NCBI GenBank assembly: GCA_017549445.1
Contig: JAFYUU010000001.1
Span: 16,332-80,331, forward strand
Origin: Alphaproteobacteria bacterium
Lineage (GTDB): Bacteria > Pseudomonadota > Alphaproteobacteria > Rs-D84
Length of the DNA stretch: 64,000 nucleotides
Reading direction: 5' to 3'
Part shown: positions 48,196 to 54,773 of the stretch, piece by piece
How the letters are laid out: every line of letters starts with the position of its first letter
Numbering within the stretch: the first letter of the stretch is position 1
The notes under the pieces: generated by a model
Database searches by the model: none
The model's input: only the letters and a program-made list of their open reading frames with translations
Told to the model about the DNA's origin: nothing
Position numbers and translations under genes: made by a program

Positions 48196-48218
48196 AAAAC
48201 CGCCGATGGCGGTTTTTT
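48196..48218. terminator. Bidirectional terminator between dnaQ and Cys-rich paralog A
   Basis: AAAAAACCGCC-GAT-GGCGGTTTTTT. Nearly the same hairpin as at 17168. Confidence 0.7.
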
Positions 48219-50382
48219 AGTCGCTTATTAGTTGGCACACACCGTTCACATCCTTGTAACTTGAATTACATACACATATCCCATTGGGGTTGCGTTTGGC
48301 ATTGGGGTCACATACACGCAAACACTGGGTTCCCCATGGCTCATATCCCGTCAAGCATACACAGTGTGCATTGACATATCCAGATGCCCCAGCTGTCCCA
48401 GCAGTGGCGGTATATGCAGAATTATCTGGGCACAGTAATGATTCATAGAACATTTCAGATATACAGGTGACATAGGCACCCTCGGTCGTTTCGCCTGAGG
48501 CAGGTGTGCAAACAGAACCACTTGACAGTTCTGGTGGGCCGGCAAAGATTGCATATCCGCATGTCAAGGCGACATTTCGGCATGCACCACGCATTACCTT
48601 GTAGATACTGTCAATACTGGCACTGGATGTCCAGGCGTTGACCTGGGTCACCTGTTGATTATAACAGGTGGCAACGTCCAACATACACGATGATGCATAT
48701 TCGGAAATAATGCTTTGCTGGGCAGAACGAATATTGGTCATGGCACGTTGAACATAATTTAAGACAACATCGTTGTATGGTTTATATTTACCCTTGTCTG
48801 TATAGGTATAACGCTGGCACTTTTCCAAAACAGGACGACATAGACCATTGTCAGTCACTTTTTCGCCAGTGCCGATTTTTTCCATCAAATAACGAACCAC
48901 ACAGATACCATCATCGCCATGTTTGTCCGCCGTGGCATCTGCCTTGCAATTGGTTTCATTAATGCTTGTTTTTAATGATTCCTGCAAAAATCCACTGTCT
49001 ATGGCGGCATTGTTATAGTTTACCATAAATTCGGTAATATTTGTGATGTTCTGACCCAGAACAACCTTGCCATTTTCATCGATGTAAATTTTAGTCGGGT
49101 CAACGCACTTGTAATATTTTTCGCCACAAACCATTTCGTCACGCATACAGTTGTCCAGTGCAGATACACACGCCTTGGCATCGTATTGATTTTTGTTTTG
49201 CAGAACCGCCAGACGGGCCTTTTGCAGCATACGTTCAGCACTGCGAACATTGGACACCAATGTTTCGTTCATCTTACGCAGACCCTTTTCATAGGCAATA
49301 CAATCCTTGTCGATTGCCAAATCGTAATTGCCCGTAATCTGGTTTGATGTGGCACCAGCTTCTTTGCATTGATTCAAGATTGTGTTGCAACGACGTTTGG
49401 CGGCATTATACAACTCGCGTCCACGCAGGTTCGAGAAACTGTTGGTGGTGGTGCCCAGATTCAGAAATTCTAAACTGAAAATATCTGATGCCTCGGCAGA
49501 AAAGTCCAAATTCATATCCAGACCAGTATAGGTATCGGAATATGTGGTGGCCACCTTGGGGTCTTTAATCAATTCTTCGATTTCTTCCAGCATATTGCGG
49601 GTTTCGGTGGTGTCCGTTTTGCCAGACAGTTCTTCTTCGGCCTCGGTCGCATTCATAATGGCACGAATTTCGTCCGCAGATAATCCAACATAACGAATCC
49701 GCTGGGCAACATCGTTTAATTCAGTGTTGGCGTTTTTAACTGCCTCTTCCGATTTGGTGTATTTAGATAAATTTGCACTGCAACTGCAACGGCCCTGGTT
49801 CGCATCAATTACATTACAGAACTGGTCCATGCAATCGTTATACTGTTCCTGACAGGTTTTGTTCAGTTCGGCATTTACCTCTAAAAACTCTTTGGCCTGG
49901 GCCATGCTGTCACGGGTGGCAACCTTGGTGCTGGCACGGGTTTGGATTTGTTCGTCTATGTTCGAACCAGTTTGGGTGTCTGTGCCGGCAATCTTGGCAC
50001 GACCGCCAACCTCGGCAGTAGAGGGACGCAGAACAACACCCGCACGACGCAATGTCGGATTATTATTTATACTGGCATCGGATACACGGGTGTTGCGGCC
50101 AACCGTGTTCACAATTTCTGATAATGATGTGTTGCCAACCGATGAAATGCGGGACACAACCGAACTGCGAGAAGATGTAGTGGGCGATGCGTTAACGTTT
50201 CTGGATATTGCACTGCGTGATATTGTTGATGCATCAGATGTTTTGCGTTCAGTTGACACAGAACGTGTGGCGGTGCCAGTTGCACGGGTATCTGTCCCGG
50301 GAATAACACGTGAAGCACCCGCCCCATAAACGGACGGTGCAATTAAAACCATCGCGAAAAAACATGTCGCAAATCTTTTCAT
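48217..50382 (-). CDS. Secreted cysteine-rich protein, paralog A (unrecognised family) with EGF-like C-terminus
   Basis: 721 aa. Signal peptide (FFAMVLIAPSVYGA), an S/T/R-rich low-complexity N-region, then a ~500-aa domain with ~30 Cys (my manual count) that starts with CQEQYNDCMDQFCNVIDANQGRCSC. Confidence 0.8.
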   Translation of the reverse strand: MKRFATCFFAMVLIAPSVYGAGASRVIPGTDTRATGTATRSVSTERKTSDASTISRSAISRNVNASPTTSSRSSVVSRISSVGNTSLSEIVNTVGRNTRVSDASINNNPTLRRAGVVLRPSTAEVGGRAKIAGTDTQTGSNIDEQIQTRASTKVATRDSMAQAKEFLEVNAELNKTCQEQYNDCMDQFCNVIDANQGRCSCSANLSKYTKSEEAVKNANTELNDVAQRIRYVGLSADEIRAIMNATEAEEELSGKTDTTETRNMLEEIEELIKDPKVATTYSDTYTGLDMNLDFSAEASDIFSLEFLNLGTTTNSFSNLRGRELYNAAKRRCNTILNQCKEAGATSNQITGNYDLAIDKDCIAYEKGLRKMNETLVSNVRSAERMLQKARLAVLQNKNQYDAKACVSALDNCMRDEMVCGEKYYKCVDPTKIYIDENGKVVLGQNITNITEFMVNYNNAAIDSGFLQESLKTSINETNCKADATADKHGDDGICVVRYLMEKIGTGEKVTDNGLCRPVLEKCQRYTYTDKGKYKPYNDVVLNYVQRAMTNIRSAQQSIISEYASSCMLDVATCYNQQVTQVNAWTSSASIDSIYKVMRGACRNVALTCGYAIFAGPPELSSGSVCTPASGETTEGAYVTCISEMFYESLLCPDNSAYTATAGTAGASGYVNAHCVCLTGYEPWGTQCLRVCDPNAKRNPNGICVCNSSYKDVNGVCQLISD

Positions 50383-50435
50383 ACTGTGTATAAATTATAC
50401 CATAAAATTACCGACAATAATACGGGAAAATTTAA

Positions 50436-52555: not shown

Positions 52556-52577
52556 AAATCCCCCAGTTGGGGGATTT
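52556..52577 (-). terminator. Intrinsic terminator after Cys-rich paralog C
   Basis: Stem AAATCCCCC/GGGGGATTT with a 4-nt loop. U-run on the minus strand. Confidence 0.65.
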
Positions 52578-52604
52578 GTTTTATTGTTCTGTTCCCTGAT
52601 CAGG

Positions 52605-54773
52605 TTATTGTTCCTGGTTATTTTTTTCTTCTTCCATGTCAGCAGGACGTTTCCAGTCACGGATATCTTGAATCCAAGAATCTTGCATACACTGTTCACG
52701 CAGGGCGGCAGAATTCACCTTGGATTTATCGCCGTATAAGGTTCCGGCTTCAATGCTGGTCTTGATAACAGCAACCATATCAGATGTTGCACCCGTGCCG
52801 TTCAAGATTTCGTTCAATGTCACGATGTTGCGACATGTGTTTGTTGTGTAATCTTGGGTGTTCAGACATTCGGTATTATCAGGTTCATCAATAACGGCCT
52901 TGAACTGTGCCATGGACGGATTACAAATCATTTCTTCATAGCAGTGTGGAACGTTTGATATCTGGGCACAATATGTCTTGATACGTGCAGTTGGCCAGTT
53001 TTCATTACTGCTGGAAACTTCTTCATAGCAATCGTAGATTTCACTTAAACATTCGTTAAAGTTTGTGCCGGCCGTGACCGCCTTGCTTAGAATCGTTTCG
53101 ACTTCTTCGTTATAGAATTCCAAACGTTTTTGTTGCAGGGCCTGTTGGGCGGCAACCTTTTGATAGCCAATGTTCTGGGCCGTGGCACGCAGTTGTTCAC
53201 CATATGCATCACAGTCCGCATTCGCATCCAGTGCATATTTCTGCATAATACTGCGACGAGCATCGGCAACGGGCTTACGCAAACTGTAATACGGGTCACC
53301 AGATGCAGACGTATAACCAAAACATGTCGCAGAATTTGACAATGTATAGTTAGAATTTGGTGTAATGAAATTCAATGTGTATTCGCCAGTATTATTGCTG
53401 GTCACACTGATAACACTGTTATAGTTATATGGACACTGGGATTGACCATTGCCACAGTATGTGTTGTTTGGACGACCGCAGGCCTCGTAAATGCCGTTAA
53501 AGCAACTGTCCAGAACACGATTACATACGTTGTTATGTGCATATTCGAACAGTTCATAACCCCACGTTTCCGCCAAGGAATCCTTTATCGCATCATCTGT
53601 TCCCAGATTTGCAATCGTGCCACCTATACCAGACAAACCACCAACAATGTCGGTCAGTGTGCTGAACGCATCGGTCAATTTATCCCTGTCATCGGTCAGA
53701 ATTGTGATTGTTTGTTCCTTGGCATCGGCCCAGGCCTGCAATGAGGCCAAGATATCAGAACTGTTGCCGTCTATGTTATCGATATCAAATCCAAAATTGT
53801 TCCCCGAGGATTCACAATATTTTGGTTTAGCACAGGTTTCGGCCCCTTCGTAGATACCGTGACTGGTGCACCATTTGTATGCATCGGAATCGACACTGCC
53901 CGTGGTCCAAGAACCGTCTTTATATGCATCCTGCCAAGAAACGCAGTTCATAACCTTTTCTGCATCGGTCAGCATAAACGCCTGGGATACGTCTTTACCC
54001 TTGTTCGCAATCAACAGGGCCAATTCACCAGAAACCTTAATCAATTCTTCGTTTGCGGTTTCAAGGGCGGCTTCGGCCTCGGCAAATGCTTTGACACGAC
54101 CGGCACATGCACAACGGCGTTGGGCCGCATTACGTGCCGTGCAAATTTCGTCCATACAGGTATAATATGATTCCATACAGTTGCTGTATGCATCGGCAGA
54201 AATCAGACCAGTTGTAGGATCGATAATATTGGAATAATTACCCGTGTATAATTTGTTCGACAGGTATGTATATGTGTTTGATGTTGCAATCGCCTTGGAC
54301 CCACGGATTGCACTGCCCTGGTGGGAAACACGTGCAACATTGGTGGCGTCACGACCACGAACCGCACGATTTGATGCAGATACCGTCTGAGGGGTTACGG
54401 TGCGTGTTGCCGTGCGAGATACGACATTACGGGCAACCGTTGCACGTGACGCATTTGACACATTACCACGATTATTAGAACGAGATACAACATTACGAGA
54501 TGCAACCGAACGGGAAGGTGTTTTTGCATTCGCTGTTGTGCGATTTACAGTGTTTGCAGTGGTGTTATTGCGTGGACTGGCCCGACCTGAACGTGCAGGG
54601 GTGCCCGCACGATTTGCCTGGGGACCATAGAACACGTCGTTCATTGGGGCAATCGGATCCGCCCACACCGAACGCATTGACATCAATGTCGAACAAGTTA
54701 AAAATGCACCACCCAGCAAAAACACCGTGCCAATGGCATTTTTACAACAATCTGTTATTTTACGAGTTTTCAT
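52605..54773 (-). CDS. Secreted cysteine-rich protein, paralog C (divergent)
   Basis: Start MKTRKIT at 54773 with a GGAGGGAAGGA RBS. Signal peptide (...LMSMRSVWA), an R/S/T/N-rich region with SRNVVSR repeats, then CMESYYTCMDEICTARNAAQRRCAC and many further Cys. Confidence 0.8.
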   Translation of the reverse strand: MKTRKITDCCKNAIGTVFLLGGAFLTCSTLMSMRSVWADPIAPMNDVFYGPQANRAGTPARSGRASPRNNTTANTVNRTTANAKTPSRSVASRNVVSRSNNRGNVSNASRATVARNVVSRTATRTVTPQTVSASNRAVRGRDATNVARVSHQGSAIRGSKAIATSNTYTYLSNKLYTGNYSNIIDPTTGLISADAYSNCMESYYTCMDEICTARNAAQRRCACAGRVKAFAEAEAALETANEELIKVSGELALLIANKGKDVSQAFMLTDAEKVMNCVSWQDAYKDGSWTTGSVDSDAYKWCTSHGIYEGAETCAKPKYCESSGNNFGFDIDNIDGNSSDILASLQAWADAKEQTITILTDDRDKLTDAFSTLTDIVGGLSGIGGTIANLGTDDAIKDSLAETWGYELFEYAHNNVCNRVLDSCFNGIYEACGRPNNTYCGNGQSQCPYNYNSVISVTSNNTGEYTLNFITPNSNYTLSNSATCFGYTSASGDPYYSLRKPVADARRSIMQKYALDANADCDAYGEQLRATAQNIGYQKVAAQQALQQKRLEFYNEEVETILSKAVTAGTNFNECLSEIYDCYEEVSSSNENWPTARIKTYCAQISNVPHCYEEMICNPSMAQFKAVIDEPDNTECLNTQDYTTNTCRNIVTLNEILNGTGATSDMVAVIKTSIEAGTLYGDKSKVNSAALREQCMQDSWIQDIRDWKRPADMEEEKNNQEQ

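Follow-up and report, generated by a model that had tools for sequence, protein, structure and literature searches.

F-type TraN is a protein of about 600 amino acids (aa) with a Sec signal, many conserved cysteines, and a conserved base combined with a variable specificity region. Chlamydial OmcB binds polyanions through a basic N-terminal segment, and the Listeria-Bacteroides repeat (Flg_new, PF09479) is typical of cell-surface proteins. We compared with such systems three neighboring genes, here called A, B, and C, in a 64,000-nucleotide stretch of an alphaproteobacterial genome of the order Rs-D84 (the window; positions 16,332 to 80,331 of contig JAFYUU010000001.1, assembly GCA_017549445.1). 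The modular, exported, cysteine-rich envelope or adhesin-like protein is a familiar kind; the domain beneath it in these three proteins is an orphan. As far as the tools used here can see, their conserved module appears to constitute an undescribed domain family of one uncultured order, and we tentatively read the family as a disulfide-locked helical scaffold of the cell envelope or surface whose variable binding modules would serve contact with partner or host cells.

The closest functional analogies would be with TraN-type contact proteins, with CHCH-type hairpins as a structural principle, and with the helical cysteine-rich adhesins of parasites. The likeness to TraN lies in size, a Sec-type signal, many conserved cysteines, and a type IV secretion system (T4SS) in the same cell, whereas the body of the A/B/C proteins is modeled as all-alpha and their genes are chromosomal, lineage-restricted, and have no plasmid homologue. 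Twin-CX9C and twin-CX3C (CHCH-type) hairpins resemble A in having fixed-spacing cysteine pairs placed symmetrically about a turn (566/573 with 601/608, and 405/412 with 419/426, in A); A, however, uses C-x6-C, and uses it many times within a secreted bacterial domain of ~480 aa rather than in a mitochondrial protein of ~60 aa, with a pairing that is itself predicted. OmcB and OmcA are likewise exported cysteine-rich envelope proteins of a host-dependent bacterium, but OmcB is beta-rich where the present family is helical, and the even number of core cysteines in the latter argues for intramolecular bonds. Plasmodium DBL/CIDR domains and trypanosome VSG-type bundles are disulfide-locked helical domains that belong to multigene families of host-dependent organisms and carry variable modules, although they have no sequence or Foldseek similarity to A, B, or C and serve as an analogy only. 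As for the Flg_new surface proteins, a scan of 10 long family members detected 2–5 repeats of this type in the C-terminal extensions of four (P0247, P0248, P0250, and P0252; E down to 7e-41), while a Pfam scan found none in A, B, or C, and the conserved N-terminal ~700-aa module stands outside that family.

Domain architecture of the A, B, and C proteins

The three genes are intact, consecutive minus-strand open reading frames (ORFs) within 48217-54791 of the window, which confirms the three consecutive same-strand genes of the initial annotation. Gene A (48217..50382) encodes 721 aa, comprising a signal segment, a basic tail, a helical body predicted to be stapled by cysteines, and a C-terminal EGF-like module; gene B (50436..52505) encodes a 689-aa paralogue of A without the C-terminal module; and gene C (52605..54773) encodes a divergent, ancient paralogue of 722 aa counted from Met7. 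An alternative upstream ATG at 54791 would give C 728 aa, whereas the orthologue consensus starts at Met7 (position 54773); motif residue numbers of C follow the 728-aa numbering. All features of the three genes given below lie on the minus strand unless noted otherwise.

Each protein begins with one hydrophobic segment (hydropathy as KD19, 1.6–1.8). Beyond it KD19 peaks at 0.96–1.27, and none of the three has a second transmembrane-like segment. The signal-peptide-like segment of A (50323..50382) is its sole hydrophobic stretch and is kept in orthologues; the predicted boundary, at which cleavage would occur, falls in A and B between MKRFATCFFAMVLIAPSVYG and the following A, and in C between ...MSMRSVWA and D. 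No canonical lipobox was found in the three proteins, which have FATC at residue 7 (A and B) or FLTC (C). In all three, the hydrophobic segment is followed by a basic tail of Arg and small residues, 120–190 aa long, rich in Arg, Ser, Thr, Asn, and Ala, and with a net charge of +4 to +18. Across the 126 full-length family members the tail has a median length of 154 aa, a median net charge of +10, and median contents of 11% Arg and 70% small residues. The low-complexity tail of A (49873..50319; aa 22-170) is predicted to be disordered (pLDDT <50). It encloses a conserved linear motif (49960..50124; aa 87-141), VGRNTRVS.ASINNNP..RRAG..LRPSTAEVGGRA.IAGT, which is present in A and B and has a mean identity of 79% among 82 orthologues versus 26% in the flanking tail.

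The tail gives way to an acidic body (net charge −17 to −35 in the three proteins), which in A spans 48433..49872 (aa 171-650) and holds 22 conserved cysteines, with recurrent C-x6-C pairs. In total A has 31 cysteines, close to the approximately 30 first estimated, while B has 23 and C has 27. Near the start of the body lies a signature motif, C-x6-C-M-D-x-F-C-x9-C-x-C, whose five cysteines are invariant and which occupies 49780..49854 (aa 177-201) in A, 51810..51884 (aa 208-232) in B, and 54105..54179 (aa 205-229) in C. The family consensus reads C-[KQ]-x-Q-Y-x-x-C-M-D-x-[FY]-C-[NA]-V-[LV]-D-x-N-Q-G-R-C-S-C, and A, B, and C all fit the broader pattern C-x6-C-[ML]-[DN]-x-[FYI]-C-x9-C-x-C. The shared motif reported in the initial annotation is thus real in all three proteins, except that its third gap is x9 and not x10, a spacing that is strict in 126 of the 126 family members having a full N-terminus. 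All core cysteines proved invariant when 84 A-type and 70 C-type sequences were aligned. The core common to A and B holds 22 of them, an even number that favors intramolecular pairing over intermolecular disulfides.

The AlphaFold2 model of A agrees with the proposed succession of a disordered tail and a helical cysteine-rich domain: residues 1-158 have pLDDT <50, residues 157-650 are all-alpha with pLDDT mostly 70–90, and the model ends in a small beta-rich cysteine module with strands at 655-718 (pLDDT 80–88). The C-x6-C spacing recurs in A at 177/184, 332/339, 405/412/419/426, 515/522, 566/573, and 601/608. Pairs 566/573 and 601/608 are mirror-symmetric about residue 587, in the loop between the modeled helices 538-583 and 590-612, and pairs 405/412 and 419/426 are mirror-symmetric about 415.5. 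Both sets have equivalents in B and looser ones in C, and might represent disulfide-stapled hairpins, although only the 566/573 and 601/608 set sits on two AlphaFold2-predicted helices. Among the orthologues, mean identity is 73–83% in the body, 26% in the tail outside the motif, and 38–48% in the C-terminal part. This pattern suggests that the body may bind something conserved, either itself or a machinery, while the ends adapt, and the charge dipole between basic tail and acidic body would let the proteins either attach to anionic polymers of the envelope or associate with one another head to tail.

The C-terminal beta-rich cysteine module of A (48220..48432; aa 651-721) consists of C.C..GY...G.C units and is EGF-like, and the extensions of long homologues attach at the corresponding end. 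In 150 representatives the ~700-aa module is constant, while the C-terminal extensions, made of cysteine-rich EGF-like and 'C..C..G.YC' units, range from 0 to 1578 aa. Elsewhere in the window (57729-59167), two overlapping genes encode small secreted cysteine-rich proteins of 156 and 323 aa. The larger has repeated 'C..GYYL...C..CP.G..SP..N.GG...C' units. It matches Ephrin_rec_like at a borderline E=9e-5 and resembles, at the level of motifs (E=0.006), the C-terminal extension of P0247, a member of the family; no orthologue of either gene was found among the 83 related loci.

The initial annotation could assign the proteins to no recognized family and considered them unlike TraN or OmcB, and our searches bear this out. 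Pfam, NCBIfam, and PHROGs yielded only sub-threshold noise for A, B, C, and 59 diverse members, and sequence and profile searches of the PDB (single sequences, and the A2 and A4 profiles) returned nothing below E=0.01. The best Foldseek matches of the A model had E 0.79 in the PDB and 0.03 in BFVD, all of them generic helical or coiled-coil matches; the C model likewise yielded nothing, a null that carries little weight given its poor quality (pLDDT 52). No published description of the family was found in the literature. Among specific candidates, F-type TraN was set aside for want of a PF06986 match (at E<=1 for A, B, and C, and at E<=0.001 for the 59 diverse members) and of a similar fold, the best PDB match of the A model, which is of moderate confidence, being to unrelated coiled coils. 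Chlamydial OmcB (Chlam_OMP6) and OmcA had no Pfam or NCBIfam match, Helicobacter Hcp and Sel1-like repeats no Sel1 or TPR match in A, B, or C, and ClyA-family toxins neither a Pfam nor a Foldseek match, nor is there any hydrophobic segment after the signal. TraN, OmcB, Sel1/Hcp, and ClyA-type toxins are therefore unsupported as families for these proteins. A search of plasmid and phage collections by tblastn found no relative of the A body, and a mobile-element origin was rejected on this ground.

Paralogy, distribution, and host lineage

A and B are full-length paralogues (48% identity over 693 columns, E=0), and the family hidden Markov model (HMM) covers both entirely (E=1e-221 and 2e-198, respectively). 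C is related to them at a greater distance: BLASTP aligns it with A over the N-terminal ~230 aa (E=7e-10), profile-profile comparison with hhalign gives a probability of 97.9% (E=4e-13), and the family HMM recognizes its N-terminal third (E=5e-23). Significant similarity between A and C is restricted to the tail, the signature motif, and the next helix; past residue ~290, C shows only weak collinear matches to the family HMM (cysteine 361 of A aligning with cysteine 527 of C), and it has its own insert of ~170 aa. The claim that the three proteins are built the same way applies to A and B, and to C only loosely. The blocks GEKY..C.DPT and (M/L)RGACRN.ALTC, listed in the initial annotation as further conserved blocks, are present in A and B and absent from C.

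The copies have different ages. A 167-nt direct repeat of 90% identity links A (49946..50112) and B (52024-52190) and encodes the tail motif; third-codon-position identity is 83–87% within it versus 46% over the whole gene, which points to a recent, probable gene conversion confined to that motif. A second A-type gene was found in none of the 83 related loci, and B is therefore a duplicate specific to this species cluster. Of the 12 members of the B cluster, 11 are full length and intact (689 aa) and two are GenBank entries from metagenome-assembled genomes (MAGs), and the A-B tandem recurs in independent GenBank MAGs under consecutive locus tags (IKV93_00320/00325 and J6S06_01815/01820). The divergence of A and C, by contrast with B, is ancient, since a distant termite-gut relative (L084) already has A-like and C-like paralogues at 24–30% identity.

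Homology searches retrieved 1230 sequences for A and 1194 for C, all unnamed or 'hypothetical' and none with a Pfam domain. When 1.84 billion cluster representatives (clusters at 50% identity) were searched with the family profile, 771 clusters fell within E<=1e-3 and 246 within E<=1e-30, and a scan of one genome per species found at least 556 coding stretches. The best 80 of these stretches came from MAGs named Candidatus Enterousia, Alphaproteobacteria bacterium, or Rickettsiales bacterium, with sheep, yak, deer, goat, chicken, and human guts as sources; distant members (24–30% identity) were in MAGs bearing one of the last two of these names. Every named member is from a MAG of gut Alphaproteobacteria, and the family is specific to the Enterousia/Rs-D84 lineage, whose genomes are reduced to less than 1 Mb. 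Candidatus Enterousia belongs to the GTDB order Rs-D84 and has genomes of 0.75–1.0 Mb (PMC12306168). These bacteria are without biosynthesis pathways and standard transporters, are predicted to depend on other cells, and are widespread in the guts of humans, livestock, birds, and termites (PMC12306168), so the guess of a host-associated alphaproteobacterium made from the DNA alone agrees both with the origin of the family members and with the described group.

None of the 83 related loci has lost an intact A-type gene. The A, B, and C genes are real and under constraint. A C-type gene adjoins the A-type gene in 30 of the 83 loci, often with rplU-rpmA between them. One locus with full Enterousia-type synteny, PpdK-C-A-DnaQ-UvrD-M5..M1 (the membrane proteins M1 to M5 are described below), is deposited as 'Bacteroides fragilis isolate ... 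cleanbin_000047' (L006; CAVGNU010000001.1); its proteins are 47–90% identical to those of the window, which suggests that the bin carries a wrong taxonomic label or is contaminated.

Genomic surroundings

The intergenic gaps in the tandem are 53 and 99 bp. Upstream of gene C lies the best sigma-70-like promoter match of the region (54861..54889; TTTACA-17-TG-TATAAT, 11/12, with an extended −10), which is a consensus match only, and directly ahead of this match a strong terminator-like hairpin with an 11-bp stem and a T run after ppdK (54896..54921) separates that gene from C. Between C and B there is another hairpin, GC-rich and flanked by T runs on both strands (52560..52574, no strand assigned). 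The three genes and ppdK need not share an operon. No tRNA or Rfam element was found within the A/B/C interval, nor any meaningful tandem repeat of the kind underlying phase variation in or upstream of the three genes.

Homologues of VirB8 (2637..3434), VirB9/CagX (3462..4988; 508 aa, unusually long), and VirB10/TrbI (5025..7478; 817 aa, also unusually long) are encoded at 2637-7478, 41 kb from the A/B/C genes. No virB11 or virD4 follows, a scattered layout that resembles the vir homologue systems of Rickettsiales. A homologue of Slam, the surface lipoprotein assembly modifier (PF04575, E=2e-29), is encoded at 33955..35280 and is followed at 35319..36281 by a 320-aa protein with no signal peptide, no Pfam match, and a metalloprotease-like HEFGH (HExxH) motif, and which is therefore not a typical Slam substrate. 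A surface lipoprotein exported by Slam was also considered for A, B, and C and rejected, as they have no canonical lipobox and the AlphaFold2 model is helical, with no C-terminal beta-barrel.

Five tandem paralogues of polytopic membrane proteins, 400–480 aa long and 15–22% identical to one another, occupy 38814-45380: M1 (38814..~40091) on the minus strand, and M2 (40169..41416), M3 (41422..42639), M4 (42649..44079), and M5 (44082..45380) on the plus strand. Three of the five have an N-terminal CxxC-type motif (CWSC, CFLC, CWGC). The longest ORF of M1 (38814-40316, 500 aa) overlaps the divergent M2 ORF by ~150 bp and its first ~75 residues look non-genic, and the true start is probably the Met just before NRLKKFWIVFLSF. 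Although tandem VirB6 paralogues of Rickettsiales are arranged in a similar way, an assignment to VirB6/TrbL was rejected: the proteins had no Pfam, NCBIfam, PDB-profile, or plasmid match, and hhalign gave 0.1% against Sinorhizobium VirB6. About 40–45 of the 83 loci retain them as a block, along with a neighboring protein of 169 aa (38234..38743). The A gene lies within 10 kb of this cluster in 45 of the 83 loci, in at least four gene orders, and the linkage is missing in distant relatives and in ~38 Enterousia loci. Gene context is therefore weak evidence of function, given this patchy linkage and the lack of VirB6 similarity. More generally, a conserved neighborhood was discarded as a functional clue, as the A gene occurs in many contexts and one locus (L005) has no neighbors in common with the others.

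Distant relatives keep only the proximity to rplU/rpmA. In L084 (positions 5109-12391), a 'Rickettsiales bacterium' MAG with a GC content of 54%, one distant member of the family is immediately preceded, in its own orientation, by genes for a TolC-like OEP, a MacA-like adaptor, and MacB-type ABC/FtsX proteins. Another paralogue, of 755 aa, lies across rplU-rpmA, so that two paralogues flank this gene pair as in many Enterousia loci, a proximity that survives divergence to 24–30% identity.

Proposed role and its alternatives

We tentatively favor, at somewhat less than an even chance, a family of exported, disulfide-locked helical scaffolds of the envelope or surface that display variable binding modules for contact with partner or host cells. 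Export, signal cleavage, the disulfide map, localization, and binding function are all points that we infer. Mechanistically, the N-terminal hydrophobic segment would direct Sec export, judging from sequence. In the oxidizing periplasm the ~480-aa acidic body would then fold into an all-alpha scaffold held by ~11 intramolecular disulfides, as the invariant cysteines, their symmetric spacing, and the modeled helices suggest, and several of these bonds may join C-x6-C pairs on neighboring segments (e.g., 566/573 with 601/608). More speculatively, the disordered Arg-rich tail of 120–190 aa and its linear motif could anchor each protein, either by binding an anionic component of the envelope or through a conserved partner. 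Lineage-specific binding modules would attach to the scaffold at its C-terminal end, in line with the extensions seen in homologues, and the load varies from nothing in B and C, through a single EGF-like unit of 70 aa in A, to as much as 1578 aa of cysteine-rich sequence and Listeria-Bacteroides repeats in homologues. The family may in this way provide a protease-resistant stalk or scaffold that contacts the partner or host cells on which the bacteria depend.

Several observations weigh against this interpretation. No outer-membrane route or anchor was recognized in A, B, or C, that is, no lipobox, beta-barrel, or C-terminal outer-membrane protein signature. The window proteins bear little or no C-terminal display module (~70 aa at most, in A), and Flg_new turned up in just 4 of the 10 long homologues scanned. 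The adhesin role suggested in the initial annotation draws its support indirectly, from the variable cysteine-rich extensions and repeats of homologues. The AlphaFold2 models are of only moderate quality, with pLDDT 64 and pTM 0.40 in the case of A and pLDDT 52 in that of C. Finally, the body is conserved to a degree (73–83%) comparable to that of the neighboring UvrD (67%) and DnaQ (75%), and such housekeeping-level conservation is more in keeping with an internal role, or with binding to a machinery, than with an adhesin domain exposed at the surface.

The conservation of both the body and the linear motif of the tail is one of several points in favor of a purely structural explanation, which we nevertheless consider rather unlikely. 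The proteins would form a periplasmic or outer-membrane lattice in which the tails bind peptidoglycan, lipopolysaccharide, or neighboring acidic bodies, and a disulfide-stabilized network stiffens the envelope of a cell with a reduced genome, functionally akin perhaps to the chlamydial cysteine-rich outer-membrane complex or to a long Lpp-type spacer. The charge dipole would permit the head-to-tail association that this requires, the only export feature found is a Sec-type signal with nothing for outer-membrane translocation, the genes belong to the core set of the order, which has two paralogues of ancient origin, and the genome encodes peptidoglycan enzymes such as a D-Ala-D-Ala carboxypeptidase. 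A lattice of this kind is, however, difficult to reconcile with up to 1578 aa of variable EGF-like sequence and Listeria-Bacteroides repeats if the scaffold is purely periplasmic, there is no similarity to OmcB or OmcA, and the 22 core cysteines, an even number, point to intramolecular rather than intermolecular disulfides. The same count fits poorly with the cross-linked surface layer put forward in the initial annotation, for which we found no support.

Two further explanations were considered. The proteins might be accessory components or periplasmic substrates of the T4SS that act as factors for contact or for stabilizing mating pairs, analogous to TraN or VirB5/CagL, an idea that draws on the VirB8, VirB9, and VirB10 homologues in the window, on the general TraN-like profile (~600–700 aa, a signal peptide, and many conserved cysteines), and on the presence of the A gene within 10 kb of the membrane cluster in 45 of 83 loci. 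We consider it improbable, given that neither sequence nor fold relates the proteins to TraN, VirB5, or any other T4SS protein, that the virB8-10 genes are 41 kb away, that the membrane paralogues have no VirB6 similarity, and that their linkage to A, missing in distant relatives and ~38 Enterousia loci, may reflect shared ancestry. We give very little credence to a secreted multi-component helical toxin or pore-former, like the bipartite and tripartite ClyA family, that would extract metabolites from partner cells. Adjacent paralogous genes for long helical proteins and a partner-dependent lifestyle would suit such a toxin, but A, B, and C have no hydrophobic or amphipathic segment for membrane insertion and no Pfam HBL/ClyA or Foldseek match to pore-forming toxins, proteins so densely stapled by disulfides would resist the extensive refolding on which these toxins rely, and the triple tandem is peculiar to one species cluster.

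The scaffold reading that we prefer can be carried further, into a form that we regard as unlikely on present evidence. The ~700-aa module would be an as yet unseen fold class, a 'multi-CX6C' disulfide-stapled helical scaffold with a basic disordered tether, and the core cell-contact apparatus of Rs-D84, which would show interchangeable eukaryote-like modules (EGF-like, ephrin-receptor-like, and Listeria-Bacteroides repeats) for attaching to and feeding from partner cells, maybe together with the five-paralogue membrane cluster or the T4SS.

A genome of ~900 genes that spends 6.5 kb on three copies of one exported family makes a large investment, and conservation across the order together with the ancient duplication of A and C points to a central function in the envelope or in contact. 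If the proteins were purely structural components of the periplasm, their interest would be more local. The signature C-x6-CMDxFC-x9-CxC offers a clean marker with which to track the lineage, the body is probably a new disulfide-stapled helical domain for structural study, and the proteins are candidate surface antigens or handles with which to enrich or visualize uncultured Enterousia-type bacteria. Orphan families are common in such lineages; this one provides a testable lead into an abundant and little-studied lineage of the gut.

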